This document shows, piece by piece, positions 23,861 through 61,595 of a stretch of DNA of 64,000 bases. The position numbers were made by a program, and so were the translations under genes. How positions within the stretch are numbered: the first letter of the stretch is position 1; every line of letters starts with the position of its first letter. Below the pieces are notes generated by a model, which saw only the letters and a list, made by a program, of their open reading frames with translations, was not told the origin of the DNA and made no database searches. Location: contig JBDRKL010000007.1 of assembly GCA_043814055.1 (NCBI GenBank), positions 32,001 through 96,000 of the forward strand, given 5' to 3'. Source of the DNA: an archaeon. Lineage in GTDB: Archaea > Undinarchaeota > Undinarchaeia > Undinarchaeales > JBDRKL01.

Positions 23861-24379
23861 ATGATTCTGTCCAACGAGGACATCAAAAAGCACCTGGCCA
23901 AGGGCACGATAAAGATAGACCCGGCGCCATCGGATGACCAGATTGGCTCGGCTTCTGTTGATTTCACGCTGAGCAACGAGTTCTACAAGGTCAGAAAAGA
24001 GTATATTGGCAAAAAAGTTGAGATGGGCAAACTAAGCTATGAGGATGTTACTGAGAAAGTTATCGCTGACGAGATAACCATAAAGCACCACGACCTGATT
24101 CTAGGAAAAACTGTTGAAAAAATTACATTGCCAGCTGACATTGCTGGAAGGATTGAGGGGCGGAGCAGCGTGGCGCGGCTCGGGATTGCCATACACGTGG
24201 CATCAGGCTTCATACAGCCTGGCTCTGACAATCATCAAGTGCTAGAAATTGTTAACTTGTCACCGTATGCGGTCAAGATAAAGGCAGGGACAAAGATTTG
24301 CCAGATAATATTTGAAACGCTCAAGAGCAAGAGCAGCAAGCCATACGCGAAATTCGGCAGGGTGGCGGTGAATCAATGA
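23861..24379 (+). CDS. dcd: dCTP deaminase
   Basis: MILSNEDI, ASVDFTL, EGRSSVARLG, GFIQPG, LEIVN, ICQIIF. Confidence 0.9.
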   Translation: MILSNEDIKKHLAKGTIKIDPAPSDDQIGSASVDFTLSNEFYKVRKEYIGKKVEMGKLSYEDVTEKVIADEITIKHHDLILGKTVEKITLPADIAGRIEGRSSVARLGIAIHVASGFIQPGSDNHQVLEIVNLSPYAVKIKAGTKICQIIFETLKSKSSKPYAKFGRVAVNQ

Positions 24380-24570
24380 AATGTGAATCAACGCTATGCA
24401 CAGATTTTAGAAAGCCATTCACTCTAGATGGCGATGATTTACATACAGAGGTTCTGACCCGAAACAACCGCTTAAAAGCGGCGGAATCTCTGGGATTTGA
24501 AAGTTTAGCAAAAAGAACCAGCTTTCAAATGTATTTGTTTGCTGACGGAGAGGGAGAAGCAAATAAATGA
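24376..24570 (+). other. four-hairpin junction cassette that is also a 64-codon ORF coupled to both neighbours
   Basis: ATGA overlap at both ends; stems 24381/24444, 24446/24492, 24495/24530 and 24532/24565; aatgaaa at both ends. Confidence 0.65.
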
Positions 24571-26072
24571 AAAAGCTGAAGACAAAACTTCTTGACATAG
24601 AGGCAGGAAAGCCCATAGTACTTTTAAACCGAGAGGATGCGACTGATATGTCCCTGCACATTGCTGACCGCGTCAGGGTTGGCGTGAGAGGGAAAACGCA
24701 GACAGCGATTGTTGACATTTCTGACAAATTTATCAAGCCAGGAGAAGTTGGAATATTTGATGAGATAGAAAAAAGGCTTGGCCTGAAGAGAGGCAACATA
24801 GTAGAGGTCAGGGTGGCGGATAGACCTGAATCTATTGATTATATTCGGAAGAAGATGGATGGAATGAAACTCACAGAGCTGGAATTGCTCTCAATAATAC
24901 AGGACATTGTTGATGACAACCTGAGCAGCGTTGAGATAAGCGCGTTCGTCGCGGCGTCATACATAAGGGGCTATGACATGGACGAGACCGCCGCAATGAC
25001 AAGAGCAATGGTTGCGACAGGAAAGCAGATAGACTTTGGAGATCATGTTGTTGACAAGCACTGCATCGGAGGCGTTGCTGGGAACAGGACCACAATGCTC
25101 GTGGTTCCAATCGTGGCTGCGGCTGGGCTTACCATACCCAAAACGAGCTCAAGAGCCATAACAAGCGCGGCAGGAACTGCTGACACTATGGAAGTCCTGG
25201 CAAATGTTGAATTCAAGGTTAACAAGATACGCGAGATTGTGAAGAAAACCGGCGGATGCATCGTATGGAGCGGTGCAGTTAATCTAGCGCCAGCGGATGA
25301 CAAAATAATAAGAGTCAGGTATCCGATGCTGCTTGACCCTGAAGGCCAGCTGCTCGCGAGCATAATGGCGAAGAAGAAGTCCATTGGGTCTGATTATGTT
25401 GTAATAGATATTCCAGTGGGTAAGGGCGCGAAAATATCAAACAAGAAAGATGGGAATGCTCTTGCAAAGAAGTTCATAGATTTGGGCAAACGTATTGGAA
25501 TAAAAGTTGAATGCCTTGTCACGGATGGGAGCGAGCCAATAGGGCGCGGCATAGGCCCGGGGCTTGAGGCGCGGGATGTCTTGCTTTGCCTGAACAATGA
25601 AGGGCCCCAGGATCTTTCTGAAAAAGCGTGCGAACTTGCTGGTGTGCTATTTGAGCTTTCAGGGAAGAGCAAGAGAGGACAGGGCAAGAAACGCGCACAG
25701 CGCCTTTTGGAGTCTGGCAAAGCCAAGAAAAAGATGATGGAAATCATAAAGGCACAGGGAGGAAACCCAAAAGTAACGCCTGAAGATATTAAAATTGGCA
25801 AATACACTCAAGTAGTTATTGCAGCACAGAATGGAAATGTGCACCACATAGATAATAAATTGCTTTCAAAGGTGGCAAGGGCTGCTGGAGCTCCTAAGGA
25901 CCATCAGGCTGGGATATATCTTCACACATCGCTGGGAAAAACGATTGAAGCGGGAATGCCGTTGTTCACGATATATGCCAGGGACAAGGAGAAACTTAAG
26001 GATGCTGTTGAACTAACAAAAAGGTATAATCCCGTGCAGGTAGGCGGGTTGACGCTAGAGGCGCTGGAATGA
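24567..26072 (+). CDS. AMP phosphorylase (archaeal thymidine-phosphorylase family)
   Basis: 501 aa; N-terminal extension, DKHCIGGVAGN, PKTSSRAITSAAGTAD, SIMAKK, ARAAGAPKD. Confidence 0.95.
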   Translation: MKKLKTKLLDIEAGKPIVLLNREDATDMSLHIADRVRVGVRGKTQTAIVDISDKFIKPGEVGIFDEIEKRLGLKRGNIVEVRVADRPESIDYIRKKMDGMKLTELELLSIIQDIVDDNLSSVEISAFVAASYIRGYDMDETAAMTRAMVATGKQIDFGDHVVDKHCIGGVAGNRTTMLVVPIVAAAGLTIPKTSSRAITSAAGTADTMEVLANVEFKVNKIREIVKKTGGCIVWSGAVNLAPADDKIIRVRYPMLLDPEGQLLASIMAKKKSIGSDYVVIDIPVGKGAKISNKKDGNALAKKFIDLGKRIGIKVECLVTDGSEPIGRGIGPGLEARDVLLCLNNEGPQDLSEKACELAGVLFELSGKSKRGQGKKRAQRLLESGKAKKKMMEIIKAQGGNPKVTPEDIKIGKYTQVVIAAQNGNVHHIDNKLLSKVARAAGAPKDHQAGIYLHTSLGKTIEAGMPLFTIYARDKEKLKDAVELTKRYNPVQVGGLTLEALE

Positions 26073-27748
26073 AAATGAAAAACAGAAAAGGGCAGGAAGG
26101 TGGCGGGCTTGGTACAATGATATGGTTCATAATAGCCTTCTTCATATTTTTCCTGCTCCTCCCCATAATAACAAGCGTGGGGGGAAGCGTTCTTGACAGC
26201 CTCAACCTTATGGTATACGAACCAGGGTTTGACCCTGCATTTTCGTGGCAGGAACAGGAGAGCAGGCCGATGTACCCAGAATCACTGCAGGTTGATAGGG
26301 AAGGCAGAATATACTTTTTTATCAAGGAATCCGATTATGAGATTACGCTGATACAGGTTGACGCGGGTGGCTCTTATTATGATGAACTGCAAACATTTCC
26401 AAGCACGGAATCGCAACAGATTTTTCCGAGCTCATTGCGGGTTAGTGAAGATGGCAAGGAGTTTTATTTTGCGGGCTTGTATGCTGTTAGAGATGATGAT
26501 TATTTTAGGATAAGAAAATACCTCAGGGGCGAGACAAGTTTGGGGGATGACCAATATGAGTTACTCAATAAAGACAGCAGCAAAATTTACCCCGAGACAT
26601 TGATGCTGAGCGAATGGAACGACGTGTATTTCGGGAAGAGGTATGACAGCAAACAGGTTGACATTTACAAGGTGGGAACTGGAAACACCGAGGTGCTCAC
26701 GTATTCCTATGACTGGGACTCAAGCAACAACAAGGAGAATAAAATGGACACGTGGTCGCTCTCTGTTGACAAGTACGGCGACTTCACTTTCATAACCGAG
26801 GATAACTGGGGGAATTCTCCCGACAACGCATACATAAAAAGATATGATTATTCGGAAAACGCGCTGAATACCATTTACGAGTGGAATGACCAGGGAGAGG
26901 ACGAGCACGACATATTCACGGATTCTGTAACAACCGCAAATAATGGGAAAACTTATTTCTTTGTTCGAGCCGAGGACAAAGACAAGGTAAGCTTTAGGCG
27001 GGTTGGGGCAATTGACAGTTTTGCCCCGCTTGCAAAATGGGACTTCCACGAAACAAAGCCGATTCAGACAAACTCTGTAACGATTGGCTGGGATGAAAAT
27101 GCTTATTTCGTGTACAAGGATGATGACTCTAGGTACAACATAGGGAAGGTTGACTTGCCGGCTGACGCGCATGAGGTTGACTCGGATGGCGATGGCCTTA
27201 CAGACAAGGAGGAGGCTGCTAGCGGGACTGATCCAATGAAAGCAGACACTGATGGGGATATGTATACTGACTTCTTTGAGATACGCTCAGGGTCAGACCC
27301 GACGAATTCCAGTGTCATAGCGATGGAGAAGGCAACATACGCTGACAGCATTGACAGCTGTGTTGAAGATGAAGACCACGAGGGATATTGCAACCGCACA
27401 CAGATTCTTGTCTTTGACGAGGACTTAGAAAACATTATAAACATAAAGGCGTGCGGTGTGAGAGGCGGTGGCGATGGCTGCCTTGCTGAAGCAAACATAC
27501 AATTTTGGTATAATAGCAGCGCCACAGGAAACTATGTGGACATTGGCATTAGCGGGTACGCAGCATCCGGCTTGCCGAACTGGAACTGCTTGGAAAAGGC
27601 ATTCGCTCCCAGCAGTTCAGTGAATAGCAATGCTTTAAAGGGCAGAATAAAAGAGGAACAAGGGAGTTGGGCTGCCTCGTGCAAATATCTGGACGCCCTG
27701 AGCGTGACCATTACGTATATGACGCCTGCAGAGCAGGACGTGGTGTGA
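26069..27748 (+). CDS. class III signal-peptide adhesin: propeller-like repeats, Ca-binding TSP3-like repeats, Cys-containing C-terminal domain
   Basis: MKMKNRKG/QEGGGLGTMIWF; repeated (YP)ESL-x-V...G-x-x-YF units; DSDGDGLTDKEE..GTDP..ADTDGD. Confidence 0.8.
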   Translation: MKMKNRKGQEGGGLGTMIWFIIAFFIFFLLLPIITSVGGSVLDSLNLMVYEPGFDPAFSWQEQESRPMYPESLQVDREGRIYFFIKESDYEITLIQVDAGGSYYDELQTFPSTESQQIFPSSLRVSEDGKEFYFAGLYAVRDDDYFRIRKYLRGETSLGDDQYELLNKDSSKIYPETLMLSEWNDVYFGKRYDSKQVDIYKVGTGNTEVLTYSYDWDSSNNKENKMDTWSLSVDKYGDFTFITEDNWGNSPDNAYIKRYDYSENALNTIYEWNDQGEDEHDIFTDSVTTANNGKTYFFVRAEDKDKVSFRRVGAIDSFAPLAKWDFHETKPIQTNSVTIGWDENAYFVYKDDDSRYNIGKVDLPADAHEVDSDGDGLTDKEEAASGTDPMKADTDGDMYTDFFEIRSGSDPTNSSVIAMEKATYADSIDSCVEDEDHEGYCNRTQILVFDEDLENIINIKACGVRGGGDGCLAEANIQFWYNSSATGNYVDIGISGYAASGLPNWNCLEKAFAPSSSVNSNALKGRIKEEQGSWAASCKYLDALSVTITYMTPAEQDVV

Positions 27749-27776
27749 GGAAAACAATATAAATAAGAGAGGATTA

Positions 27777-28136
27777 ATGCGAAAGATGGGCAAAAACTAC
27801 ATATTTAAAATCGGCGGCGGGCTTTTCGTGGCCTCGGGTGCCTTGGGCTTGTTCTTTTGGATACTGTCAATTCTTGGGCAGTTTGAGTCAGTAATACCAG
27901 CGGCAAAAGCGCTGTCCGGTCTTGGCGGGCTTGAGATGCTCAAATCCATAATCATACTTGTTGGCAGCATTTTAGTTTCTGTTGGGTTCGTGCTTGCCGG
28001 CCTTGTTTTCATAAAGATACCGAGCGCGATAAGCGGCGGTGACTTTAACGAGGTCAACGAGAAAGTGAACCGCCTGCAGACCGTGGTCTGGAAGCTCCTG
28101 CAGAAAGTCAAGCAGGAAAAAAGCGTGGAAGGCTAA
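27777..28136 (+). CDS. 2-TM hypothetical protein (start may be ATG 27786)
   Basis: Two hydrophobic helices plus a short coiled coil; TATAAATA about 28 nt before 27786. Confidence 0.7.
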   Translation: MRKMGKNYIFKIGGGLFVASGALGLFFWILSILGQFESVIPAAKALSGLGGLEMLKSIIILVGSILVSVGFVLAGLVFIKIPSAISGGDFNEVNEKVNRLQTVVWKLLQKVKQEKSVEG

Positions 28137-28184
28137 TACACAAAGTTTAAATTAGGGCCTGCGGCTATATTTTAAAGGGGAGAA

Positions 28185-30004: not shown

Positions 30005-30005
30005 A

Positions 30006-31908: not shown

Positions 31909-31932
31909 GCGACTCAATTTAGTTTAAAGAGC

Positions 31933-33144
31933 TTAGTCCATTTGTATTTCGCCAAATGTTTTTACAATAACATCAAGATCGTCTTGTGAAAGATACTGGT
32001 GGCAGCCAATGTAGAAACCATTTGAACCTGTATAGTCTGCGTTTGGTAGTTTTCCTTCATATGTAGCCTTAAGATAAGAATATGCTGCCTGCTGTGTTGG
32101 GATACAACCGAAGAGTGGTCTTGTCTCAACTCCACGCGACTCCAGCTCTGCTCTGAGTTTTTTCCTAGGTATTTTGTCAGGATTCTTTATTATAATTGGA
32201 TATGCAAGATAGCTTACGTTCTCGTTGTATGGCGGAAGCTGTAGAACGTCAGAGTATTTTTTAAGATTTTCATTTAGATACTTAACGTTATTTAACCTGC
32301 TTTTAGTTATGTCATCTGCTTTTTTTAGTTGGGTACCGGCAAGTGCTGCCTGAAACTCCATGGTCTTGAAGTTGTAGCCAATCAAATCGTGTGTGAATCT
32401 TGGGTCAAAATCATCGTCACCTTTGTAAGCTGCCATTTTTGGGCATTTCCCCTCGTTTCTTGTGCAGACTGGGCAGTCACACATGCGCCCATTTGCCTTG
32501 ATGCGTTTGAGCAGTTTGTATATCTCAATGTCATCTGTTGTTATTGCACCCATCTCTCCCGCCTGTATGTTGTGGGCTATATAAAATGAGAAGTCCGCCA
32601 ACAGAGAGAGCGATCCTGTTTTTTTGCCTTTGTACGTTGTCCCATGAGCCTGCGCAGAGTCCTCAAATGTAATCAAGCCATATTCTTTTGCGATTTTGTT
32701 TATTTCATCCATATCGCAGGGATAACCCATTAGGTGTACTGGCAGAATTGCTGCGTATTCAGATGAGTCGTCGACTCCCTCAAGATGAGCTTTTATGTTC
32801 TCAGGCGTGATTCCAAACGTTGCCGGATCTGTGTCAACATATACAGGTTCAAAGCCTGTTGTGACTATTGCATTACTCGTAGCTATGTAGGTTAGAGGCG
32901 TGGTTATTATTTTTGACTTCTCTTTTATAGGGGTGATTGGGTGGTGTTTAAGAGCTGTAAGCCCCCCCATTATTGCACTTGTCCCAGAGCTTAGAGCCAC
33001 TGCATATTTTGTCCCTATATACTCTGCAAACTCGCTTTCAAAATTTCTTACACACTCTGCCTCAGATATTCGACCTGATTCCAGCACGCGAAGTACTGCT
33101 TCTTTCTCGTCTTTTCCAATAACAAAATCCCCTACATGTATCAT
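31933..33144 (-). CDS. DegT/DnrJ family PLP enzyme, RfbH/E1-like 3-dehydrase type
   Basis: SSGTSA, PVHLMG, EDSAQAHG, FSFYIAHN (His at the usual Lys), GRMCDCPVC..C. Confidence 0.85.
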   Translation of the reverse strand: MIHVGDFVIGKDEKEAVLRVLESGRISEAECVRNFESEFAEYIGTKYAVALSSGTSAIMGGLTALKHHPITPIKEKSKIITTPLTYIATSNAIVTTGFEPVYVDTDPATFGITPENIKAHLEGVDDSSEYAAILPVHLMGYPCDMDEINKIAKEYGLITFEDSAQAHGTTYKGKKTGSLSLLADFSFYIAHNIQAGEMGAITTDDIEIYKLLKRIKANGRMCDCPVCTRNEGKCPKMAAYKGDDDFDPRFTHDLIGYNFKTMEFQAALAGTQLKKADDITKSRLNNVKYLNENLKKYSDVLQLPPYNENVSYLAYPIIIKNPDKIPRKKLRAELESRGVETRPLFGCIPTQQAAYSYLKATYEGKLPNADYTGSNGFYIGCHQYLSQDDLDVIVKTFGEIQMD

Positions 33145-33288
33145 TTCAAAGTTTCACCTCTTTCATCAGCTTTGGAATCAACACAAAACTCAGCAATTTC
33201 TAGGGATTTTGTGTCTGATTTCAAAGTTTCACCTCTTTCACGGGCTTTGAAATGAGTACATTCATAGATTTCATGGTCTGTACCTCAT
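33141..33288 (-). repeat. tandem pair of two-hairpin junction cassettes carrying three chained mini-ORFs
   Basis: atttcaaagtttcacctctttca at 33143 and 33218 and again at 41353; 9-bp stems atttcaaag/ctttg(a/g)aat. Confidence 0.85.
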
Positions 33289-34238
33289 TTTTTGTTTCGC
33301 CAATACTCCAAGATGTCTTTGAGCGTTGTGTCAAAGTCTATCTCAGGTTTCCAACCGGTCTGCTTGCAGAATTTTGTGTTGTCCCCAAGCAAAATTTGGA
33401 CATCACTTGGCCTCATTCGCTCTGGGTCTTCCTTTACTTCTATTTTTGCGTCTGACATTCCCAATAGCTTGTCCAGAACTTCCTGGATTGGGTGAGTTGT
33501 TCCACTGCAGATATTGTAGACATCTCCGGGTTCGCACTTCTCAACCGCGAGTAGGTATGCGCGAACTGTATCTCGCACGTCAGTGAAGTCGCGCTTTGCA
33601 GTTAGATTTCCGACATTAATTATTGGATCTTTTTTATTGTTTTCAATGTCCACTATCTGCTTTGCAAAGTTTGAACAGACGAAAACACTGCCGCGTCTTG
33701 GACCGGTGTGATTGAACGCGCGCGTCCTAATTACTTTTACCCCGTATGACTGGAAATACTGGTAACCGAGGTAGTCCTGCGCGACCTTGCTCACTGCGTA
33801 CGGGCTCAGCGGCCTTAGCGGGTTCGTCTCCTTGATCGGAACTTCGTCTGGCATGACCATGCCATATTCCTCAGAAGAGCATGCTATCTGAATGGTTGGG
33901 TCTGCGTCTGATTCGCGGACTGCTTCAAAAAGATTTAGCTCCCCTATTAAATTGGTGTGCATTGTATCTGCAGGGGAACGCCAGGACGCGGGGACAAAAG
34001 ACTGTGCAGCCAAGTGGAAAATGTAATCAGGCTCGGATTCTTTTACAGCCGCTTTCATACTGTATGCGTCGTGCAGATCTGCCTCTATAAGTTTGAGATT
34101 GTTTTGTATATGCTTTATGTTTTCTGAGTCGCTCCTCCAGCGGGTTAATCCATAGACCTCATGCCCTTTTTCAAGCAGGAGCTCTGCCAGGTGGCTTCCT
34201 GCGAAGCCGGTTATGCCGGTTATTAATGAGTTTGTCAT
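33285..34238 (-). CDS. GDP-mannose 4,6-dehydratase family SDR (Gmd/Rmd-like)
   Basis: LITGITGFAGSHL, HLAAQSFV, SSEEYG, SPYAVSK, FNHTGPR, RDFTDVRD; start set at ATG 34238 after a GGAGG RBS. Confidence 0.88.
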   Translation of the reverse strand: MTNSLITGITGFAGSHLAELLLEKGHEVYGLTRWRSDSENIKHIQNNLKLIEADLHDAYSMKAAVKESEPDYIFHLAAQSFVPASWRSPADTMHTNLIGELNLFEAVRESDADPTIQIACSSEEYGMVMPDEVPIKETNPLRPLSPYAVSKVAQDYLGYQYFQSYGVKVIRTRAFNHTGPRRGSVFVCSNFAKQIVDIENNKKDPIINVGNLTAKRDFTDVRDTVRAYLLAVEKCEPGDVYNICSGTTHPIQEVLDKLLGMSDAKIEVKEDPERMRPSDVQILLGDNTKFCKQTGWKPEIDFDTTLKDILEYWRNKK

Positions 34239-34315
34239 TTCAAAGCCTCCTTGAATTTTACCAGCTTTGAAATACACACAAAGCTGGACACATTTGTTAA
34301 ACTTTGTTGTGTCAT
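34235..34315 (-). other. two-hairpin junction cassette / 26-codon leader mini-ORF
   Basis: GGAGGT RBS, MTQQSLTNVSSFVCISKLVKFKEALK*, ATGA overlap with the 34238 start; aaatgaca at both ends. Confidence 0.75.
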
Positions 34316-34348
34316 TTTTACCTCCACCTATTCCGTAGGATTATAATT

Positions 34349-35173
34349 TTATTTCCACTCCTTTATCGCCTTTTCGTAGCTTTCATTTGTGCCAAGGTCG
34401 TACCACGGACCTGAGTAGACATATCCAGAAAGTTTTCCCTGCTTTGCGAGCTTTGGGAAGACATCCTTTTCCAGCATTGCCTTTTTCTTGTTTGGCAGGT
34501 AATCAACAATGCTTGGCTCAAAAATGTAAAGACCTGCATTTATTAGGTTGCTAATGCGGTCTTTTGGCTTTTCAATGAATCCGGTTATTGCTGATCCGTT
34601 TAGAGTTGCAACACCAAATCGAGATGGATCCTTGACTGTTGTGAGTGCAATGGTTCCGGTAGAGTTTGAATTTAGATGAGTCTGGAGCATGTCAAGTACA
34701 TCTATTTTAGAGAGAAGGTCGCCGTTCATCATTACGAACGTGCTGTCAATCTTGCCTTTCGCGAGCCGAAGCGGTCCTGCGGTTCCAAGCGGCTCTTTTT
34801 CAACTAAATATTCTATGTTCACACCTAGGTTGTTGCCATCACCTAAGTGGGCTATTATTTTTTCAGACATATGACCGACCGACAATAGAATATCGTTTAT
34901 GCCAAAGCTTTTGAGGTTCAGGATAAGGTGTTCCACAAGAGCCCTTCCTTGAATAGGGATAAGCGATTTTGGAACTTCGTAGGTTAATGGGCGGAGTCTT
35001 GTCCCAATACCCCCTGCGAGCACAACTGCTTTGCTTATGCCATTGATTTGAAATGCTTTTCTGACAAGTTTCTCAACTGCAGCAGACCTGTTTTTGACAG
35101 TAATATTATCTATTGTTCCGTCTACTTTTTTAAGAATTCCCTTATCCAACGTCATGGTAATTCGCTTTTTCAT
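34349..35173 (-). CDS. ribbon-helix-helix + sugar-phosphate nucleotidyltransferase fusion
   Basis: N-terminal RITMTLD...NRSAAVEKLV (RHH); LAGGIGTRLRPLT..PK, EPLGTAG, NGD, INAGLY. Confidence 0.85.
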   Translation of the reverse strand: MKKRITMTLDKGILKKVDGTIDNITVKNRSAAVEKLVRKAFQINGISKAVVLAGGIGTRLRPLTYEVPKSLIPIQGRALVEHLILNLKSFGINDILLSVGHMSEKIIAHLGDGNNLGVNIEYLVEKEPLGTAGPLRLAKGKIDSTFVMMNGDLLSKIDVLDMLQTHLNSNSTGTIALTTVKDPSRFGVATLNGSAITGFIEKPKDRISNLINAGLYIFEPSIVDYLPNKKKAMLEKDVFPKLAKQGKLSGYVYSGPWYDLGTNESYEKAIKEWK

Positions 35174-40185: not shown

Positions 40186-40758
40186 TTATTCCTCCTTTAG
40201 TATCAATTCAACAGACTCATACAAGTCCTTGACCATGAAATCCGGCTTTGCGTTTTTTTCCTCAAGCAATTTGCAAACGTCGCACTTGCCCTGCATACCG
40301 ATTAAGATTGTAGTGCAACTCGCACTTGCCCCTGCCTTGATGTCAGCCCAGCTGTCTCCAATCATGTAAGACTGCTTTGCGTCAATGCCCAGGTCTTTGC
40401 AAGCCTGCTCAATCATGCCGGGTTTTGGCTTGCGGCACTCGCACTCGTCCTCGTGCTTGTGCGGGCAATAGTATATCGCGTCAAGCTTTGCATCAGCCGC
40501 TTCAGCGAGTTCTTTCTCCATTTTTTCGTGTATTTTCTTGAGCATTTCTTCAGTTAGGCGACCTTTTGCAATTGCTGGCTGGTTTGTAATTACAATCGCG
40601 AGGTAATCTGAGTTGTTTATCTTTTTAATTGCATCCGCAGCGCGCGGCAACAGTTTGAAATCGTTCGGCTTGAGTGGAGAGTCCACTATACCGAGCTCCT
40701 CGTTCAGATATGGCTCGTTTATGGTGCTGTCCCTGTCTATGAAGATTGCTTGCTTCAT
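40186..40758 (-). CDS. gmhB: D-glycero-D-manno-heptose 1,7-bisphosphate phosphatase
   Basis: Start MKQAIFIDRD at 40758 (ATGA overlap); ITNQ, YCPH..CECRKPKPG, MIGD. Confidence 0.88.
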   Translation of the reverse strand: MKQAIFIDRDSTINEPYLNEELGIVDSPLKPNDFKLLPRAADAIKKINNSDYLAIVITNQPAIAKGRLTEEMLKKIHEKMEKELAEAADAKLDAIYYCPHKHEDECECRKPKPGMIEQACKDLGIDAKQSYMIGDSWADIKAGASASCTTILIGMQGKCDVCKLLEEKNAKPDFMVKDLYESVELILKEE

Positions 40759-41354
40759 TCTTTTTCTATTTTCTCCTTGAGCGCTGCGCACAACAGATGC
40801 GAGAGCACTGCGTGGAAGCCTTCTGTGAGCGGCGTGGATTCTACCGGCACAATTAGGCAATGGTCAGCCATCTGCTTCATTGCTCCGCCGTCAAAACCGG
40901 CAAGGCCGATTGCAACTCCACCATTGTCCTTTGCATACTGAAGCGCCTTGAGCAGGTTCTGGGACCAGGTGCCTGCCTTGTCAGAGCCAGAGCCGCCGTG
41001 CACGCTGAACGCGATTACCACGTCGCCTTCCTTGAAGAAGTTGATGAGCTGTTCGGAGTAAACGTCACCCCAGCCGTTGTCATTTGTAAGAGCGCTGACA
41101 AGCGGAATGTTGTCCACGAGCGCAAGCGCCTTGAAGCGCTGTTTGCCTTCAACATTGCAGTATTTGTTCAGGTCACATGCCATGTGCGTTGCAGTTGATG
41201 CTGAGCCGCCATTTCCAATAAGGAAAACTGTTGAGCCGCGCTTCCACGCCTCAAAGAGCGCATCTATGACTGCATCTATATCCTTTTGTGAAATATTTTT
41301 CACTATATCCTCCATGTTGGAGAAGTATTTTTCAAGAAATTCTTGGTTGTTCAT
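40755..41354 (-). CDS. gmhA: sedoheptulose-7-phosphate isomerase (SIS domain)
   Basis: GNGGSAS.A.H, TNDNG...SEQL, GFDGG, EGFH. Confidence 0.85.
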   Translation of the reverse strand: MNNQEFLEKYFSNMEDIVKNISQKDIDAVIDALFEAWKRGSTVFLIGNGGSASTATHMACDLNKYCNVEGKQRFKALALVDNIPLVSALTNDNGWGDVYSEQLINFFKEGDVVIAFSVHGGSGSDKAGTWSQNLLKALQYAKDNGGVAIGLAGFDGGAMKQMADHCLIVPVESTPLTEGFHAVLSHLLCAALKEKIEKE

Positions 41355-41430
41355 TTCAAAGTTTCACCTCTTTCAGCAGCTTTGAAATAAACACGAAACT
41401 GCTTGACAGATTTATTGTTTTGTGCCTCAT
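41351..41430 (-). other. two-hairpin junction cassette / 24-codon bridge mini-ORF
   Basis: MRHKTINLSSSFVFISKLLKEVKL* (41430-41356) starts in the ATGA of the upstream stop and ends 1 nt before the gmhA ATG; homologous to 33141-33288. Confidence 0.8.
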
Positions 41431-42419
41431 TTTGCCTCCGAGTGCGCCTTGCTCCAGTTGTAGAGCTTGTGCACTAGTTTTATTGATTCAAGAGCGTCAT
41501 TCGCGTTCGCGAGCGGCTCGCGGTTTTCCTCTATTGCTGCAAGAAGTTCCTTGAACTCAAGAGCCCAAGAGTTGTCAGCTTCAGGAAATTCAAACACCTC
41601 TTGGTCAGGCGGACCCATCTCTGGTTTCATCTTGTAGAGCGTGAGAGTTTCTGGACCGTAGCTTCTGCCGAGCCCGTTTATTTCAATTACACCTGTCTTG
41701 CCGAATATGTGGAAGTAAAATCGGTTTTTCCACTCGGTCCAGCTTGCGTGCAGGAACGCTGTTTTGCCTTCCTTGCTCCTGAGTATTGCAAAGCCATTGT
41801 CCTCAACTGGTATTTCCCAGAATTCGTTTGTCGCGAAGCCGACAGCATCATCAAAATTGCCGGCGTACCAGCGCGAAAGATCAATTAAATGAGAACCTTG
41901 GTCAAGCATTTCTCCGCCGCCGCTTTTCTCTGGGTTTGCGCGCCACTCTTTTTCATATCCTGGGCGACCGCCGTGGCCATAAACAGCGCGGATGTAGCAG
42001 AACTCGCCGATTGCTCCGGAGTCCAAGAGCTCCTTTGCCTTGAGCATCGCGGGGTGGTATCTGTGATTGAATCCAACTTTGACTTTCTTGCCGGATTCCT
42101 GCGCGGCTTTGACCAACTGCGCGACTTCGTCAGGATTCCTGCCGGCTGGTTTTTCAACAAGCACGTGCTTGCCGTTTTGGAGTGCTTCAACTGATATTGG
42201 TGTGAGCAGGTCGTGTGTAGTGCATACAAAAACTATGTCAATTTCAGGATTTGATACGACTTCTTTCCAGTCCGTGGTGTATTTGCAATTGTATTCTGAC
42301 GCAAGTTTTTTTGCACTTTCCTCATTAACGTCTGCAACTTGGATGAGCTCTGCGCCTTCAAGCGCTGCCGCGCGCTTGTTGCCTATGAGCCCTGCGCCGA
42401 TTATTCCAACGTTAACCAT
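41427..42419 (-). CDS. Gfo/Idh/MocA oxidoreductase
   Basis: IIGAGLIG, HVLVEKP, VGFNHRY, GGGEMLDQGSHLID. Confidence 0.92.
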   Translation of the reverse strand: MVNVGIIGAGLIGNKRAAALEGAELIQVADVNEESAKKLASEYNCKYTTDWKEVVSNPEIDIVFVCTTHDLLTPISVEALQNGKHVLVEKPAGRNPDEVAQLVKAAQESGKKVKVGFNHRYHPAMLKAKELLDSGAIGEFCYIRAVYGHGGRPGYEKEWRANPEKSGGGEMLDQGSHLIDLSRWYAGNFDDAVGFATNEFWEIPVEDNGFAILRSKEGKTAFLHASWTEWKNRFYFHIFGKTGVIEINGLGRSYGPETLTLYKMKPEMGPPDQEVFEFPEADNSWALEFKELLAAIEENREPLANANDALESIKLVHKLYNWSKAHSEAK

Positions 42420-43257
42420 TTTCATCACCTTTCTTCTCAAACGCTAGGAAATTGTCAATTCGCCTGAGCCTGTAGAGCGAATTGTTTTCAAAATCAGATT
42501 TGCTGAGATTTTCCCAGTTGTCCCACTTCGCGCTTATAAGGCGGCCGGTTATTCCGTTGGATTTTTCAGATGCGAGGAAAGAAACAAGCTCCGCGACTTT
42601 TTCAACTGAATCACCGCCGAATTCTTTCTGCTTCTTGGATTGCTCCAGAAAGTCCTTGCCAGCTTTTTCACCCGCTTCAAGAATCTGCTCAAGAAGCTGG
42701 GTGTTTATTGCCCCAGGAGCTATGCAGTTGATGTCAATGTTTTTCAATTCAATGGAAAGACACTGGGTCAGACCGGCAACAGCGAATTTTGAAGTGGTGT
42801 ATGCGCTTAGGTTTGGCTTAAGGTTTCCTCCAACTCCGCCGCCTGCTAGGTTTATGATTTTTCCGCTTGGCATATGCGGAAGCACTGCCTTTATGCAGTT
42901 CACCATTCCGAGCAGGTTGACCTCAATGGTCTTCTGCCACAGCTTAAGGTCATTCTGTTCAAGTGGGCCGATTGGACCGTACATTCCGGCGTTGTTTACA
43001 AGAATATCTATCTTGCCGAACTTCTCAGCTGCCTGTGAAAAGCATTTTTTAATGCTTTCTGAATCTGAAACGTCTGCCTGACACTTCAGAACTTCAACCC
43101 CGCTTAGTTCGGATTCAAGCGAGTCAAGGTCTGCTCTGGTTCGCGCGATTATTACAAGGTTTGAGCCCTGGCTTGCGAGATGCTTGGCTATTTGGCGGCC
43201 AATTCCCTTGCCAGCACCGGTAATTACGCTTGTTTTTCCGCTCAGTGTTTTTACCAT
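42412..43257 (-). CDS. classical SDR oxidoreductase
   Basis: TGAGKGIG, NNAG, YTTSK, IAPG. Confidence 0.9.
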   Translation of the reverse strand: MVKTLSGKTSVITGAGKGIGRQIAKHLASQGSNLVIIARTRADLDSLESELSGVEVLKCQADVSDSESIKKCFSQAAEKFGKIDILVNNAGMYGPIGPLEQNDLKLWQKTIEVNLLGMVNCIKAVLPHMPSGKIINLAGGGVGGNLKPNLSAYTTSKFAVAGLTQCLSIELKNIDINCIAPGAINTQLLEQILEAGEKAGKDFLEQSKKQKEFGGDSVEKVAELVSFLASEKSNGITGRLISAKWDNWENLSKSDFENNSLYRLRRIDNFLAFEKKGDENG

Positions 43258-52654: not shown

Positions 52655-52663
52655 ATAGGTAAA

Positions 52664-56048: not shown

Positions 56049-56926
56049 AAATAGTAATACCGATGTCAGGAGCAGGGACAAGATTTGTTAAGGCCGGGTA
56101 TGAGGAGCCGAAGTCGCTGCTCATGGTAGACGGCAAGCCGATAATAGAGCACATAGTTGATATGTTTCCAGGCGAGGACGATTTCATATTTATTTGCAAT
56201 CCAGAGCACTTGGAAAAGACAAATTTGAGAGAAGTTCTTGAAAGGATTAAACCGACTGGGAAAATAATTGAGGGCGAGAAGCACAAGAAAGGCCCGGTTT
56301 ACACTGTGCTTCCGTTTTTGGACGAGATAGGTGATGATGAACAGGTTATTGTTAATTACTGCGACTTTGGATGGGACTGGGATTATGAGGATTTCAAGAG
56401 GAAAATGGAGGAGACCAAGTGCGACGGATGCGTTGTGGCTTACAAGGGATACCACCCGCATCACTTTGGAGACACTTATTATGGATATATGAGATGGGAC
56501 GAGAATAATTACATGCTTGAAATCCGAGAAAAAGAGCCCTTCACAAACAATAGACAAGAAGAGTATGCGTCTTCAGGGACTTATTATTTCAGAAAAGGGG
56601 AATTTTTGAAAAAATACTTCAAGGAAGTTGTGGACAAGGACATAAACAAGTATGGAGAGTACTTCGCGAGCCTTCCATACAATCCAATGGTGCGAGATGG
56701 TTTGAAAGTTTACATTTATGAGATTCCGGTTTTCCTGCAGTGGGGCACCCCGCAGGATTTGGAAGAGTACGAAGCGTGGTCCAGGCATTTCTTGGGAGAG
56801 GATAAAGGAAAGACTAGCGAGCCAAAGGGAAGAAAAGTTGATTATGAAATAAAACTTGAGCCAGGGTCAGAAGAGTACAAAGAAGCAGAAGCATACTGGG
56901 CGAAATATTTTGAGGGTAAAAAATAA
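56045..56926 (+). CDS. nucleotidyltransferase-like (GT-A fold) protein
   Basis: IVIPMSGAGTRF..AGY..PK, NYCD, SGTYYF, GEYF, WGTPQDL. Confidence 0.85.
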   Translation: MKIVIPMSGAGTRFVKAGYEEPKSLLMVDGKPIIEHIVDMFPGEDDFIFICNPEHLEKTNLREVLERIKPTGKIIEGEKHKKGPVYTVLPFLDEIGDDEQVIVNYCDFGWDWDYEDFKRKMEETKCDGCVVAYKGYHPHHFGDTYYGYMRWDENNYMLEIREKEPFTNNRQEEYASSGTYYFRKGEFLKKYFKEVVDKDINKYGEYFASLPYNPMVRDGLKVYIYEIPVFLQWGTPQDLEEYEAWSRHFLGEDKGKTSEPKGRKVDYEIKLEPGSEEYKEAEAYWAKYFEGKK

Positions 56927-57000
56927 TGGCAGTTGGAAGCTTCCAAAAATATATCAGCTCCCAACTACATTTAACTCACAAAAGGCAGGGAAGTTAAATG
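56926..57000 (+). other. two-hairpin junction cassette / 23-codon bridge mini-ORF
   Basis: TAATG start, MAVGSFQKYISSQLHLTHKRQGS* ends at 56997 abutting ATG 56998; stem catttaact/agttaaatg contains the ATG; aatggca at both ends. Confidence 0.75.
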
Positions 57001-57801
57001 GCAAATATAATTCCAATGGCAGGAGAAGGAACAAGATTTGTTGAGGCAGGGTACGACTTGCCCAAGCCACTTATTCCGGTTTCTGGAAAACCCATGATAC
57101 TCCGGGTTGTTGAAAACCTTCCTGAAACTGATAAATGGATTTTTCTTGTGCGAAAGGAGCATATTGATGAGCACGAAATTGACAAAATTTTAAAAGATAA
57201 TGTTCCGGGCGCGATTATTGTTCCAGTTGAGGAAACTACAGAGGGGCAGGCAAGCACGTGCATGCTCGCGATGCCGCACCTTGAGCCCGATGAGCCCATG
57301 TTCATTGCTTCGTGTGATAATTCTTTCTTGTACGACAAGAAGAAGTATGTTGAACTTACGCAAGATGAAAGCGTGGATGCAATTATTTGGACATTCACGC
57401 AGAGCGAATTGCTCAGGGAAAAGCCGGAGAGCTGGGGGTGGGTTGTTCTTGGAGAAAAGAATGAGGTGAAGGACATGTCAGTAAAGACCCCAGTTTCTGA
57501 CAACCCTTTTAATGACCATGCGGTTGTGGGGACGTTTTACTTTAAGCGCGCTGGAGACTTTGAAGCAGCGTACAACATGATGGTTGAAGAGAAGTTCAGG
57601 GTAAATAACGAGTTTTATGTTGACTCCATCCCAAAGTTCTACAATAAGATGGGCAAGAAGAGCATTATTTTTGATGTTGAGCTGTATGTTGGCTGGGGGA
57701 AGCCTAAGGATTTGAAAGAGTATGAAAAAATAGAATTAGAGAAAGACAAACCTTTAATATGGAAGAGGTACTTTGAACAATTGGAGGATTTGAATGGCTA
57801 A
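56998..57801 (+). CDS. nucleotidyltransferase-like (GT-A fold) protein, paralogue of 56045
   Basis: IIPMAGEGTRF..AGY..PKPLI, TEGQA, SCD, VNNEFYV, WGKPKDL. Confidence 0.85.
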   Translation: MANIIPMAGEGTRFVEAGYDLPKPLIPVSGKPMILRVVENLPETDKWIFLVRKEHIDEHEIDKILKDNVPGAIIVPVEETTEGQASTCMLAMPHLEPDEPMFIASCDNSFLYDKKKYVELTQDESVDAIIWTFTQSELLREKPESWGWVVLGEKNEVKDMSVKTPVSDNPFNDHAVVGTFYFKRAGDFEAAYNMMVEEKFRVNNEFYVDSIPKFYNKMGKKSIIFDVELYVGWGKPKDLKEYEKIELEKDKPLIWKRYFEQLEDLNG

Positions 57802-58522
57802 ACAAAAAAAAGATGTGTTAAAACTGGCCAAGTCAGTTTTTATATTTCAGGACGTGTTGTCGTGGCTAGACACGAAAGTGCCAGTTGTGCTTGAACACAA
57901 CCTGCAAAAGTATTCAGCGATAAAAAAGACATTTTACATGACCGCACTTGAGGAATTGGACGGTGATTATTATGAATTCGGTGTGTTTACAGGTAGCTCG
58001 TTTGTGTGCGCAATGAGGGCGCACAGAAAACTGAAGAATTTAGGAGAGATAAAAACAAAATTCTTTGGCTTTGACTCGTTCACCGGCTTTGGAGATATTG
58101 CAAAAGAGGATGAACACGGATTTTATCAGAGCAATATATTTACAATAAATGAAAAAAAAGTGTTAAGGTATATCAGAAAACGGGCAAAGGGACTGAAGTA
58201 CAGTATAATCAAAGGGTATTTTGAAGATACCTTGAAGGGAAAAACCTGTGTAGCACTTAGCAAAGATAAGGCGCGAATTGTGTTTATTGACTGTGATTTG
58301 AAAAAGCCAACTGAGCTCGCGCTCAACTATGTAAAGCCTGCTTTGCAACAAGGAACTATGGTAATTATGGATGATTTCTACTCATATAAAGGAAGTTCGA
58401 AGAAAGGCGTTGCAGGGGCTTTCTTTGAGTTCTGTGACAGAAACACGAAGATAAAGTTCAGGCGAGTGTTTGACTATGGAATGGGGGGAGTTGGCTACGT
58501 AGTTTCTGAGATTAAAAAATGA
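57794..58522 (+). CDS. TylF/MycF-like O-methyltransferase
   Basis: GDYYEFGVFTG, GFDSF.G, KGYFEDT, FIDCD, MDDF. Confidence 0.85.
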   Translation: MAKQKKDVLKLAKSVFIFQDVLSWLDTKVPVVLEHNLQKYSAIKKTFYMTALEELDGDYYEFGVFTGSSFVCAMRAHRKLKNLGEIKTKFFGFDSFTGFGDIAKEDEHGFYQSNIFTINEKKVLRYIRKRAKGLKYSIIKGYFEDTLKGKTCVALSKDKARIVFIDCDLKKPTELALNYVKPALQQGTMVIMDDFYSYKGSSKKGVAGAFFEFCDRNTKIKFRRVFDYGMGGVGYVVSEIKK

Positions 58523-59229
58523 AACCAAAACTTTCAATCGTCGTGCCATGCTACGATGAAGAAAAGAACATACCGCTCATTTTGGATAGATTCAAGAGTG
58601 TCATAAAGACAAAGGATGTTGAACTTATTTTGGTTGACAATGGTTCGAATGATAATACTCCACAGGTCTTGAAAAAGCTTCTGCCAAAGTATAAATTCGC
58701 GCGGTCTGTTAGGGTTAAGAAAAATATTGGATATGGCTGGGGTATATTTTCAGGATTGAAATCTGCAAAGGGTGAGTTCCTTGCGTGGACTCATGCAGAT
58801 ATGCAGACAGATCCAAAAGATGTTATTACTGCATTCACATTCATCAAGAAGCAGGAGAACCCTGAAATGACTTATGTCAAGGGTAGAAGAAGAGAACGTC
58901 CGCTGTTTGATGGGGCGTTTACCTTGGGAATGAGCATAGCAACAACTTTGCTCCTTGGAAAGTTTATGAGCGATATAAATGCTCAGCCAAATGTATTCCA
59001 CAGAGAATTCTTTAATCTGCTTAGAAAAAAGCCTCCAACGGATTTCTCATTTGATACTTATGCGTATTATCTTGCAAAGAAGAATGGGTATAAAGTTGTG
59101 AAAATTCCAGTTTATTTCAAAAAAAGAATTCATGGAGAGTCACACTGGAATGTGAGCTTCGGCGCGAAGTGGAAGTTCATCAAGCGCACAGGGAAATTCA
59201 TAATGATGCTTAGGAGAGAATACAAATGA
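58519..59229 (+). CDS. DPM/GtrB-like GT2
   Basis: VPCYDEE, DNGSND, GYG.G, THADMQTDP, R.HGESHW. Confidence 0.88.
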   Translation: MKPKLSIVVPCYDEEKNIPLILDRFKSVIKTKDVELILVDNGSNDNTPQVLKKLLPKYKFARSVRVKKNIGYGWGIFSGLKSAKGEFLAWTHADMQTDPKDVITAFTFIKKQENPEMTYVKGRRRERPLFDGAFTLGMSIATTLLLGKFMSDINAQPNVFHREFFNLLRKKPPTDFSFDTYAYYLAKKNGYKVVKIPVYFKKRIHGESHWNVSFGAKWKFIKRTGKFIMMLRREYK

Positions 59230-59807
59230 TGCTCATAATGCACCGCGTGAACACAATTGAAGGGCTTAAGAACGTTTCGGCCGAGTACGGGGTTGAAGTG
59301 GATGTAAGAACTGATGGGAACAAGCTGATTTTAAACCACGAGCCAATGGAAGGCGGTGACGAGCTTGAGGAATACTTGAAAGAGTACAAACACAAATTCA
59401 TAATATTCAATATAAAAGAAGCTGGGATTGAGGATAAGGTTAGGGCGCTTGCTGAAAAATATAAGGTAAAAGATTACTTTCTGCTTGATGTGGAATTCCC
59501 ATATATCTACAAGGCGGCGCGGAGTGGTGTGAAAAACATTGCAATACGATTCTCAGAGGATGAGCCTATTGAGGCTGCGCTCGAGTACAGGGGGAAAGTT
59601 GATTGGGTGTGGATTGATACTAACACTAAATTGCCGCTTGATGCTGATGTTGTTGAAAAGCTTAAAGGGTTTAAAACATGCCTTGTTTGCCCGAGCAGGT
59701 GGGGAAGGCCAGAAGATATAAAGGAGTATAAAGAGAAAATAAGCGAGCTTGGGATTAAACTTGATGCTGTTATGACTGAAGAAAAATATGTAGGAGATTG
59801 GAAATGA
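59226..59807 (+). CDS. PI-PLC/glycerophosphodiester phosphodiesterase-like protein
   Basis: HRVNT, GVEVDVR, NHEP, NIKEAG, RFSEDE, WVWID. Confidence 0.7.
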   Translation: MMLIMHRVNTIEGLKNVSAEYGVEVDVRTDGNKLILNHEPMEGGDELEEYLKEYKHKFIIFNIKEAGIEDKVRALAEKYKVKDYFLLDVEFPYIYKAARSGVKNIAIRFSEDEPIEAALEYRGKVDWVWIDTNTKLPLDADVVEKLKGFKTCLVCPSRWGRPEDIKEYKEKISELGIKLDAVMTEEKYVGDWK

Positions 59808-60457
59808 AGATAAAAGCAGTTTTAATGGATTTGGATCATACCCTTTATGATTATCACGCATGCAATGACGCCGGGATGGATGCGGTTTTTGGATTTATAG
59901 AGAAGGAATACAGCAAAAAGCGCGATGATGTTGAGAAGATTTTCTACGCAGCGCGGAAAAAGGTCAAGATGGATTTATTGGGGGCAGGGGCTTCGCACTC
60001 GCGGCTCTTGTATTTCCAAAAAATGCTTGAGGAGATTGAAGGGACTACAAATCCAAAAACAATACTTGAGGTTTATAACTTGTTCTGGGACACTTATTTT
60101 GAAAAAATGAAGGTTCCGGATGGTATCAGGAAACTGCTTGAGCACATCAAGACAAAAAAGGTCAAGATTGTGCTGGTCACTGATTTGACTGCGAGGGTTC
60201 AGATGCAGAAGCTTGAGAAAATGGACCTTGGCAACTTGATTGACTTTGTGGTAACTTCAGAGGAAGCAGGAAGGGAGAAGCCAGCCCCGTATATTTATTA
60301 TCTCGCGCTTGAAAAGGCAAAGTGTGATATTGACGAAGCCATCTTCATAGGGGACGACTATGACAAGGACATTGCAGGCGCAGAGAATCTTGGGATTAAA
60401 AATTTTAACTTGAGCCACAACTCGGACTGGAAAGAGATTTGGGCTCTGTTTGAATGA
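59798..60457 (+). CDS. HAD-superfamily hydrolase
   Basis: DLDHTLYDY, VTD, EKP, IGDD..KD. Confidence 0.9.
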   Translation: MEMKIKAVLMDLDHTLYDYHACNDAGMDAVFGFIEKEYSKKRDDVEKIFYAARKKVKMDLLGAGASHSRLLYFQKMLEEIEGTTNPKTILEVYNLFWDTYFEKMKVPDGIRKLLEHIKTKKVKIVLVTDLTARVQMQKLEKMDLGNLIDFVVTSEEAGREKPAPYIYYLALEKAKCDIDEAIFIGDDYDKDIAGAENLGIKNFNLSHNSDWKEIWALFE

Positions 60458-60512
60458 TACTGGAGCACTAATTCACCACATATTTAAATGGAAAAATGTT
60501 CCAATCGCTAAA

Positions 60513-61595
60513 ATGATAAAAGTAGATTTGATAAACGGCATAAAAACCGAGAACCCCTATGGGTTTAAAGTGTATGTTGATGAAATAAACCAGCTGCTAA
60601 AGGAGGAGGTTGAGATAAACGAGATACTTTATACTCCGAGCAAGAGCCAGATTGTCCACTTTTTCCAGAGGTTTGTGGAGTATCCGCTTAGGATAATGGC
60701 GGGAAAGCAAAGAGGTGCAATAAAGCACATAACCACACCGGATCTCGCATATCTTTTAAACATGTTCAGGTTTAGAAACTGCCTGATAAATGTCTACGAC
60801 GTCACGTTTCTGGAGAGGATAAAAGACTACAATATAGTGGTTAGGTTCCTGCTGAGGCTCAATGTTATGGGCATAAAGAAGGCAAAACATATTGTAACGC
60901 TTAGTGAGTACTCGAAAAGAGATATACACGAAAAAATTGGAGTGCCTCTGAATGACATAACCATTATAGTGCCATCTCTGAATCACAAAGTGCATAAAAA
61001 AAATAGGAGCAAGGAGATACTGAAAAAGTATGGAGTAGAGAAAAAAACTGTTGTTATGTACGTTGGGTCAGAAGAGCTCAGGCAGAACATGGACAAGACA
61101 CTTAGAATGCTCAAGGAAATAAAAAAGGATGTCAAGGATGTGGTTCTTGTAAAAGTTGGAAACCCCCAGTGGAGCGGGGGCAGGGAGAATACCTTGAGAA
61201 TTATCAAAGAACTCGGGCTTGAGAAGGATGTGATTATTGTTCCGATTGAAGATTCGCAAAGTGCAGAAAGCCTGAGTAAGTTTTACAACGCAGCGGATGT
61301 GCTTGTGTATCCATGTGCGTACACTGGATGGGGGCTCCCCCCTCTCGAGGCAATGGCGTGTGGAACGCCTGTTGTTACTTCTAATACAACCTCGCTGCCA
61401 GAGGTTGTTGGAGATGCAGGGATTATGATAAAGCCAGATGACATCAAAGCGTATGCGTCAGCAGTAATCAAAGTACTTAAGGACAAAAAAACTAGGGAAA
61501 AAATGATAAAAAAAGGATTGGCAAGGGCGAAAAAGTTTACATGGGATGCATCAAGTAAAAAAATGCTTGCTGTATACAAGAGATTGGATAGCTGA
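60513..61595 (+). CDS. GT4 glycosyltransferase
   Basis: [28 protein letters not shown]; start placed at ATG 60513, 29 nt after a TTTAAA box. Confidence 0.88.

Follow-up and report, generated by a model that had tools for sequence, protein, structure and literature searches.

A family of short two-hairpin repeats at the start codons of unrelated genes in an archaeal genome

Introduction

What are the hairpin-rich cassettes that lie between the stop codon of one gene and the start codon of the next in this archaeal genome, and how did they come to be there? The question is raised by a stretch of 64,000 nucleotides (the window; G000:C7:32001-96000) from the metagenome-assembled genome G000, which has 979,685 bases in 14 contigs, 45-48% G+C and a rated completeness of 82%, and which is archaeal, the archaeal small-subunit (SSU) rRNA model scoring 1506.6 bits. 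A crude map of its open reading frames (ORFs) holds 1030 genes of at least 70 amino acids (aa) at a coding density of 93%. A preliminary description of the window had picked out five junctions (24376-24570, 33141-33288, 34235-34315, 41351-41430 and 56926-57000) and a weaker sixth (60453-60518) as sharing one design, with a direct repeat containing the start codon at both ends, abutting hairpins with a ribosome-binding site in the last loop, and a mini-ORF that bridges the cassette and ends near the downstream start. The sequence-related family and its architecture stood up to analysis, whereas the junction at 60453-60518 did not, and those at 24376 and 56926 are weak structural matches. We think the family is probably a lineage-restricted, non-autonomous repeat similar in kind to the interspersed repetitive units of mycobacteria (MIRUs), inserted in sense orientation at the start codons of unrelated genes and made harmless by its own Shine-Dalgarno (SD) sequence, start codon and mini-ORF.

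The repeat family

The motif of the junctions at 33141-33288, 34235-34315 and 41351-41430, all on the minus strand, recurs genome-wide, as seen with a motif search and then nhmmer. The latter gave 32 matches in G000 at E<=1e-3, 30 of them full length, and the alignment of these 30 copies (A1) was the basis of a covariance model, R1. R1 gives 35 matches in G000, two of which are antisense echoes of palindromic copies, leaving 33 distinct sense loci. The three junctions, which had been called related in sequence, contain four copies of this one repeat (70.2-86.4 bits). A unit is typically ~85 nucleotides (nt) long, with a range of ~62-95 nt and tandem or composite forms in places, and is ordered 5' to 3' as a first ATG (ATG1), hairpin 1, hairpin 2 with GGAGGTGA in its loop, and a second ATG (ATG2) that is the working start. 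The sense consensus is a-AATG-A-GACaCAAAGC-loop-GCTTyGTGT-t-CAT-TTCAAAGC-TGnTGAAAgGAGGTGAaa-CTTTGAA-ATG. The loop of hairpin 2, GAGGTGA or GGAGGTGA, is complementary to the 16S rRNA 3' end (...GATCACCTCCT), and this SD is retained in nearly all copies. The copies in the window are listed here.

41345-41434, minus strand: family copy (R1 85.5 bits) between a GFO/IDH/MocA oxidoreductase gene (41427-42440) and a SIS-domain gene (40755-41354), both from Pfam; ATG1 at 41428-41430 in an ATGA overlap with the upstream TGA, hairpin 2 at 41355-41386, ATG2 at 41352-41354.
34229-34319, minus strand: family copy (R1 73.8 bits) ahead of a GDP-mannose-dehydratase-like gene; ATG1 at 34313-34315 after the flank SD GGTGGAGGT, hairpin 2 at 34239-34271, ATG2 at 34236-34238.
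33210-33292, minus strand: unit 1 of a tandem dimer, from R1 (70.2 bits) and alignment to a second dimer at G000:C10:34922-35072; ATG1 at 33286-33288 overlapping the TGA of the upstream dehydratase-like gene, hairpin 2 at 33220-33251; the unit terminates in ATC (33217-33219), not ATG.
33135-33223, minus strand: unit 2 of the same dimer (R1 86.4 bits); an ATC at its 5' end pairs with a central GAT (a compensated pair), hairpin 2 at 33145-33176, ATG2 at 33142-33144, the start of a DegT-family aminotransferase gene (31933-33144, Pfam).

The copy at 41345-41434 has GAGGTGA in the hairpin-2 loop, folds at -19.3 kcal/mol (z -2.0) and carries a 24-codon mini-ORF that ends UGA-A-AUG. The copy at 34229-34319 folds at -24.5 kcal/mol (z -3.4), and its 26-codon mini-ORF ends in an AUGA overlap. 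In the mechanical ORF list the dehydratase-like gene (33285-34277, minus strand) is over-extended to a GTG at 34277. Its Pfam match begins at residue 18 of that longer ORF, so the working start is the ATG at 34238. The two dimer units (33135-33292) fold less strongly, with z of -1.3 and -1.4.

Placement at start codons and unit boundaries

Each of the 30 full copies has the orientation of the ORF downstream, whose start is ATG2 or lies within 12 nt of it. The ATG2 position is ATG in 25 of the 30 and ATC in two, the first units of the tandem dimers; the remaining three have ATC, ATT or a degenerate triplet, and the long ORF opens at a TTG in the 3' arm. On the upstream side, ATG1 overlaps the stop codon of a long ORF (as ATGA or TAATG) in nine of the 30 copies and lies 1-9 nt past a stop in eight more. 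The unit is preceded by AATG in 24 of 30 copies and also has AATG at its end. The non-repeated flank 5' of ATG1 contains an SD of at least 4 nt in 15 of the 24 copies with a 5' ATG or GTG, and since three of the nine SD-less copies are internal ATGs of composite cassettes, this amounts to 15 of 21 cassette-initial ATG1s, compared with 63% of 124 ordinary overlapping starts and 18% of random 12-mers. By its overlap with or closeness to upstream stops and by this rate of flank SDs, the context of ATG1 is fully that of an ordinary start. Genes associated with a cassette include those that we take, from their translations, to encode aEF-2, topoisomerase VI A and B, S28e, RpoP, Spt4 and Ndk.

The direct repeats reported earlier, with the start codon inside them, are seen at five junctions in the window: AAATGA at 41351 and around the 33141-33288 dimer, AAATGACA at 34235, AATGAAA at 24376 and AATGGCA at 56926. 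Over 20 family copies, the bases after ATG1 match those after ATG2 with a sum of 29, against 16.1 in permuted pairs (p=0.0003), and runs of at least three are found in five copies against 1.06 expected (p=0.0005). A subfamily of four copies has ATC and GAT in place of ATG1 and the central CAT. This speaks for a 5' triplet that is part of the element and for insertion immediately 5' of the native ATG, with the cut itself ambiguous within the repeated AATG. In a variant copy at G000:C9:267-341 (plus strand), ATA stands at both ends inside a 10-nt direct repeat, CAAAATAAGA, a C-G pair of hairpin 2 is swapped to G-C, and the real ATG is 4 nt past the second repeat.

Deletion between the repeats restores a normal overlap, and this is the only point in favour of an insert at the RNA level, a cassette of intron-like or processing type between AAUGA repeats that would be removed to restore the ATGA junction. 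The folds have no end-to-end pairing of the kind that a bulge-helix-bulge needs, and a good SD together with stops in all frames beside ATG2 would be pointless in a segment that is excised. We regard this explanation as very improbable.

Empty sites, distribution and copying

Orthologous junctions were compared in 12 genomes of the same order, all from other families than G000. At pyrB-pyrI, the relatives' 11 loci have an ATGA overlap in nine cases, TAA followed by 1 nt and ATG in one, and a different neighbour in one; in G000 the pyrB stop overlaps ATG1 and pyrI begins 76 nt on, at ATG2. At tktN-tktC, three relatives (L158-160) have an ATGA after a conserved EEL(K/R), the same as ATG1 in G000, and in other relatives the genes are overlapping, fused or joined by a different small ORF. 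A different insert of ~94 nt occupies this junction in two relatives, G009 and G001 (L153 and L154), where a Cys-rich ORF of ~30 aa runs from an ATGA overlap to beside the tktC start. Between the genes for topoisomerase VI B and A, the stop is at most 14 nt from the start in nine of ten informative loci, and in the tenth an in-frame ATG lies 10 nt past the stop; the distance from stop to ATG2 in G000 is 75 nt. The preliminary description had suggested looking for empty sites in related genomes, and all three conserved junctions examined have them, with relatives showing plain ATGA/TAATG junctions where G000 has ATG1. At the window junctions 33141 and 41351 the neighbouring genes differ in relatives. 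R1 found no match in 35 orthologous loci (125 kb). As an observation apart, the aEF-2 match of one relative (G012:C14:1734-3932, L196) has one in-frame TAG.

The family appears to be narrowly distributed. There was no match at E<=1e-4 in 16 other genomes of the phylum and no convincing match in 40 other genomes; a match in G010 (E 6e-4) was discarded as the motif was absent on reading. A scan of 185,579 species genomes for the exact pattern returned three matches, all in unrelated bacteria, and a scan of viral contigs returned 13 loci, none above 27.1 bits. The metagenome pattern scan returned 78 loci (L060-L137), of which, on reading, one (L115) is a true relative and the rest are an unrelated repeat or scattered chance matches. 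The L115 copy (L115:15-104, 75.1 bits), on a contig with 51% G+C, lies ahead of an L19e gene and is the sole copy found outside G000. It has a 15-nt direct repeat, AAATGAACACACAAA, that takes in the first four codons of the L19e gene, and this gene has no counterpart in the assembled G000 contigs. Separately, ~50 of the 78 metagenome loci, from two datasets, belong to an abundant unrelated repeat on contigs with 32-43% G+C, with the loop GAGTCTAAGTGCGAAGT preceded by AATAAGCCATTTCCGAGTTCGCTCGAGCCTCT, whose likeness to the hairpin-2 stem is by chance.

Copying within G000 has left one recent duplication. Two composites of 135 nt with hairpins 1a, 1b and 2 (G000:C10:26378-26518 and C11:6811-6952) are identical at 133 of 135 positions (98.5%), from AATG to AATGGC, and their flanking genes are unrelated; the genes beside them are, judging from translations, presumably a 2-oxoacid:ferredoxin oxidoreductase beta-like gene and Spt4. 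The two tandem dimers have second units that are 94% identical and first hairpins that differ. The preliminary description had offered two readings of the cassettes, and the 33 sense copies, their absence from all 16 phylum genomes, the empty junctions, the flank SDs and the 98.5% identical pair favour its first one, a non-autonomous element that stays neutral by supplying its own coupling ORF and ribosome-binding site.

Structure and alternative explanations

Hairpin 1 is variable and hairpin 2 constant, with at least five copies having unrelated hairpin-1 stems. Under the two-hairpin structure 82.6% of the cells of A1 are paired, against 77.9 +/- 0.6% when shuffled (0 of 500 shuffles reach the observed value), and controls in which the structure is slid along A1 pair in 22-46%. 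Changes on both sides of a pair are found at 12 of 21 pairs, and for hairpin 1 at 8 of 10. The abutting hairpins of the preliminary description, with an SD in the last loop and an ATG at or in its 3' arm, are thus borne out by this covariation and by the folds (z -2.0, -3.4 and -2.5 at 41351, 34235 and 56926). The G of ATG1 pairs with the C of the central CAT, and this pair (7-54) is CG in the four copies that have ATC...GAT instead, two of which are second units of tandem dimers and mutually related. The minimum free energy (MFE) folds have ATG2 paired, at the foot of hairpin 2, with the central (C/U)AU.

Several structural candidates were rejected. In two places hairpin 2 comes back every 75 nt, recalling a CRISPR-like array, but the 'spacers' are conserved hairpin-1 modules and most copies are single. 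A C/D-box or K-turn loop (CUGAUGA ... GUGA) was dismissed because UGAUGA is not conserved across copies and there is no Rfam match. The CAAAGC/GCUUUG core common to both hairpins could allow attenuator-like alternative pairing, but the copies with unrelated hairpin-1 stems led to its rejection as a feature of the family.

The pairing of ATG2 in the folds also bears on another explanation, in which the units would be a lineage-specific cis-regulatory RNA module under selection. Hairpin 2 would partly hide ATG2 until opened by ribosomes translating the mini-ORF or by a protein or RNA acting in trans, so that downstream translation is tied to upstream translation or to a signal, and duplication would account for the origin of the copies only. 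The compensatory changes, the retention of the loop SD and mini-ORFs that span both hairpins and, in 19 of 21 cassettes, stop at -4 or +1 are consistent with such a role, as are the four ATC/GAT copies, which are without ATG1 and in which ATG2 would also be unpaired. Highly expressed genes are numerous among those served, such as the ones we take to be aEF-2, S28e, Ndk, Spt4 and RpoP. However, the module is absent from orthologous junctions in all 12 same-order genomes, and the genes served are unrelated in function (sugar metabolism, topoisomerase VI, transketolase, pyrI, an Mrp antiporter, an ABC ATPase). Since unrelated hairpins can replace hairpin 1, the alternative pairing 1:2/3:4 is not a conserved feature; nor is the peptide frame. 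No Rfam family was found either: the Rfam 15 covariance models gave no match at gathering score over the window and none at E<=1 over 33100-34350. As a full account of the family we consider this unlikely.

A further explanation places the hairpins at the DNA level, as in elements of the REP (repetitive extragenic palindromic)/RAYT (REP-associated tyrosine transposase) kind or the palindrome-associated transposable elements (PATEs) derived from the insertion sequences (IS) IS200/IS605. A Y1 transposase that recognises single-stranded DNA hairpins would insert the unit strand-specifically 3' of the short target AATG, and its SD and ATG content would let insertions survive. The two subterminal hairpins, the lack of terminal inverted repeats, the single fixed orientation and the AATG before the unit and at its end fit this, and the tandem and composite arrays resemble bacterial interspersed mosaic elements (BIMEs). 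In addition, the antisense strand folds better in 22 of the 30 copies of A1 (mean -21.1 vs -19.2 kcal/mol, Wilcoxon p=0.024), and A.C mismatches, which are G.T on the other strand, occupy 51 cells of A1 vs 20 for G.U pairs; both hint at selection on the bottom DNA strand. On the other side, this strand bias is modest, the ATC subfamily violates the AATG rule, and the cleavage-site geometry of IS608 differs. Y1_Tnp (PF01797) and the TnpB Zn-ribbon (PF07282) have no matches in the assembled 82% of the genome. We find this explanation improbable.

Several of these observations, and some others, weigh against the MIRU-like repeat that we favour. The antisense-fold bias and the excess of A.C mismatches are not explained by a role at the mRNA level, nor are they proven for one at the DNA level. 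Besides the two families just named, DDE_Tnp_1, rve, Phage_integrase and RVT_1 also gave no matches in the assembled 82%, although with a genome 82% complete the absence of a mobilising enzyme is weak evidence either way. The hairpin-keeping compensatory changes, the strict sense orientation and the retention of the SD could equally reflect selection for an mRNA function. The length of the direct repeats, ATG included, ranges from 3 to 15 nt, and there is no clean target-site duplication, as the youngest pair shares AATG only. The median pairwise identity across the family is 65%, which suggests age, and the insertions could be old and fixed, given that the nearest genomes compared belong to other families.

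Mini-ORFs and translational coupling

ORFs were read from ATG1 or GTG1 in 24 copies. Eleven of them end as UGA-A-AUG and seven as AUGA. A further one continues across a tandem second unit as far as its AUGA, another stops at +13 and another after 5 codons; the remaining three are internal ATGs of composite cassettes. Of the 21 cassette-initial mini-ORFs, 19 (counting the tandem read-through) end at -4 or +1 of the working start, with lengths of 21-46 codons, and by sequence reading the composite cassettes are bridged by a single ORF if read from the first ATG. Within the window the mini-ORF stop lies at -4 (41351), +1 (34235), +1 (24376) and -3 (56926) of the start, as had been described, and the 33141-33288 dimer has a chain of short ORFs only. 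No peptide is conserved, since two frames are in use and the peptides differ, which agrees with the earlier remark that peptide frame is not always kept. A conserved micro-protein was rejected given the two frames, the varying lengths and a 64-aa ORF (at 24376-24570, below) without a Pfam family.

The preliminary description had proposed comparing bridging ORFs with shuffled controls. Among 184 co-directional gaps of 40-200 nt in the genome, 23 are bridged, compared with 7.3 +/- 2.5 in 200 shuffles (maximum 14), and the excess is mostly in family gaps, of which 12 of 17 are bridged. Non-family gaps show a mild enrichment (11 of 167 vs 5.9 +/- 2.3 shuffled, maximum 12).

A mechanism can be proposed for the repeat as we understand it. 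The 5' triplet (ATG, or ATC in one subfamily) would replace the old start of the gene, and ribosomes, delivered from the upstream gene or recruited via the old SD, would initiate at ATG1. They would translate the 21-46 codon mini-ORF across both hairpins, terminate at the UGA one base ahead of ATG2 or at an overlapping AUGA, and then restart at ATG2; alternatively, fresh ribosomes may be recruited straight to the loop SD. That the unit moves, that its mini-ORF is translated and that there is coupling are all steps we infer from the sequence. The second reading in the preliminary description, with ribosomes on the mini-ORF melting the stem that hides the start, is compatible with the predicted pairing of ATG2 with CAT or TAT, and a regulatory or coupling role in addition to a start-codon repeat family is possible. 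A bolder version would be an archaeal mobile element that homes to start codons with the loop-SD module as its sole cargo, that has rewired translation initiation at ~3% of the genes of a streamlined genome, and that the host now uses as a coupling switch, in which ribosomes on the mini-ORF melt hairpins 1 and 2 and so free the CAU-paired start. We put this forward as a tentative and rather doubtful idea.

Other sites in the window

The remaining junctions of the preliminary description were searched with R1 over the window with filters off. By a rough calibration, chance loci selected by the hairpin-2 pattern score 25-31 bits with R1.

56922-57007, plus strand: distant or convergent candidate (R1 33.3 bits, E 3.6e-4) between two nucleotidyl-transferase genes; TAATG at 56924-56928, two hairpins, a purine-rich last loop, ATG2 at 56998-57000.
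24376-24570, plus strand: four-hairpin cassette between dCTP-deaminase-like and thymidine/AMP-phosphorylase-like genes.
60453-60518, plus strand: not a family member; no R1 match at E<=10, fold z -0.61.

The candidate at 56922-57007 has a fold z of -2.5 and a 23-codon mini-ORF with UAA immediately before AUG. The stretch 24370-24575 folds into four hairpins at -58.4 kcal/mol (z -4.27, with 0 of 200 shuffles as good), and the cassette within it is spanned by a 64-codon ORF with an ATGA overlap at each end, whose 64-aa product matches no Pfam family; the last loop contains GGAGAGGGAG. Its last two hairpins (24486-24576) give a weak R1 match (27.8 bits, E 0.004), and the matches at both sites run end to end, in register with the real starts. 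No sequence copy of the 24376 or 56926 junction was found elsewhere in the search. With weak R1 scores against those of chance loci, good folds and no copies, we grade both sites as probable old or convergent members of the family. The segment 60453-60518, in contrast, is unstructured and has no stop in the reading frame of the glycosyltransferase gene (Pfam) that follows it, as part of an ORF at 60450-61595 that begins at TTG 60450, so the weaker sixth junction falls away.

A second, unrelated cluster of intergenic repeats was also seen in the genome, none of them in the window. It consists of G+C-rich palindromes with motifs such as TTTTTGGTCAAGC, and includes G000:C12:67485-67615, G000:C3:23710-24079 and 20 other intergenic segments. 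Some of these adjoin tRNA-like sequence, one pair is identical at 36 of 37 positions, and two lie in gaps bridged by mini-ORFs.

Comparison with known elements

The preliminary description knew of no archaeal element with this layout, and our literature search, limited in extent and without supplements, found no archaeal description of one; a bacterial precedent does exist in the MIRUs. A review (PMC12548453) describes MIRUs as inserting at start codons with a coupled ORF, the -4 nt spacing being an AUGA overlap, and mentions that leader ORFs are used synthetically. Like MIRUs, the archaeal unit is a short interspersed repeat found at start codons in sense orientation and in tandem copies, its ORF ends as AUGA (7 of 24) or UGA-A-AUG (11 of 24) with putative coupling, and no transposase is known for MIRUs or was found for the archaeal unit in the assembled 82%. 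It differs in its archaeal host, its two covarying hairpins and the SD of its own in a hairpin loop, and its arrays reach at most 2-3 modules, unlike the long variable-number arrays of MIRUs. The likeness is drawn at the level of functional class, and common descent is not expected, the host being an archaeon.

The REP/BIME-RAYT systems and PATEs are likewise small, hairpin-based and non-autonomous, lack terminal inverted repeats, occur within transcription units, and have composite or tandem arrangements and variation that preserves structure. REPs usually lie after stop codons and have no SD or ATG, whereas the archaeal unit lies at start codons and carries both, with no Y1 transposase match in the assembled 82%; placing it among the REP/RAYT or IS200/IS605 elements would require that enzyme. 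Classical miniature inverted-repeat transposable elements (MITEs) such as Correia and ERIC are short, multi-copy, co-transcribed with their neighbours and able to alter expression signals. The archaeal consensus, however, has ends (AAATGAGAC... and ...CTTTGAAATG) that are not reverse complements, its inverted repeats being the internal hairpins. It has a single orientation and direct repeats of varying length, with no clear fixed-length target duplication, and no parent IS was found in the assembled 82%. The unit also resembles the synthetic bicistronic design, in which a short leader ORF with its own SD contains a second SD and has its stop at, or in overlap with, the start of the gene of interest; ribosomes on the leader thereby unwind structure and are brought to that start. 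By analogy the same may be proposed for the archaeal unit, which differs in being natural, in having ~33 copies in one genome and in being combined with hairpins.

Significance

For annotation, these units matter since gene callers will over-extend starts (GTG 34277) and call spurious small proteins (the 64-aa ORF at 24376-24570). How a short repeat that lacks a transposase lands precisely at start codons is a puzzle even in the case of MIRUs, and, if our reading is true, the family would be a second, unrelated case of a start-codon repeat, in an archaeon with a genome of ~1 Mb. With clear boundaries, empty orthologous sites and one recent copy pair, it would offer a compact system for studying the insertion mechanism. 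It would also be a natural test of whether a leader mini-ORF together with an SD displayed in a loop can preserve translational coupling in archaea.

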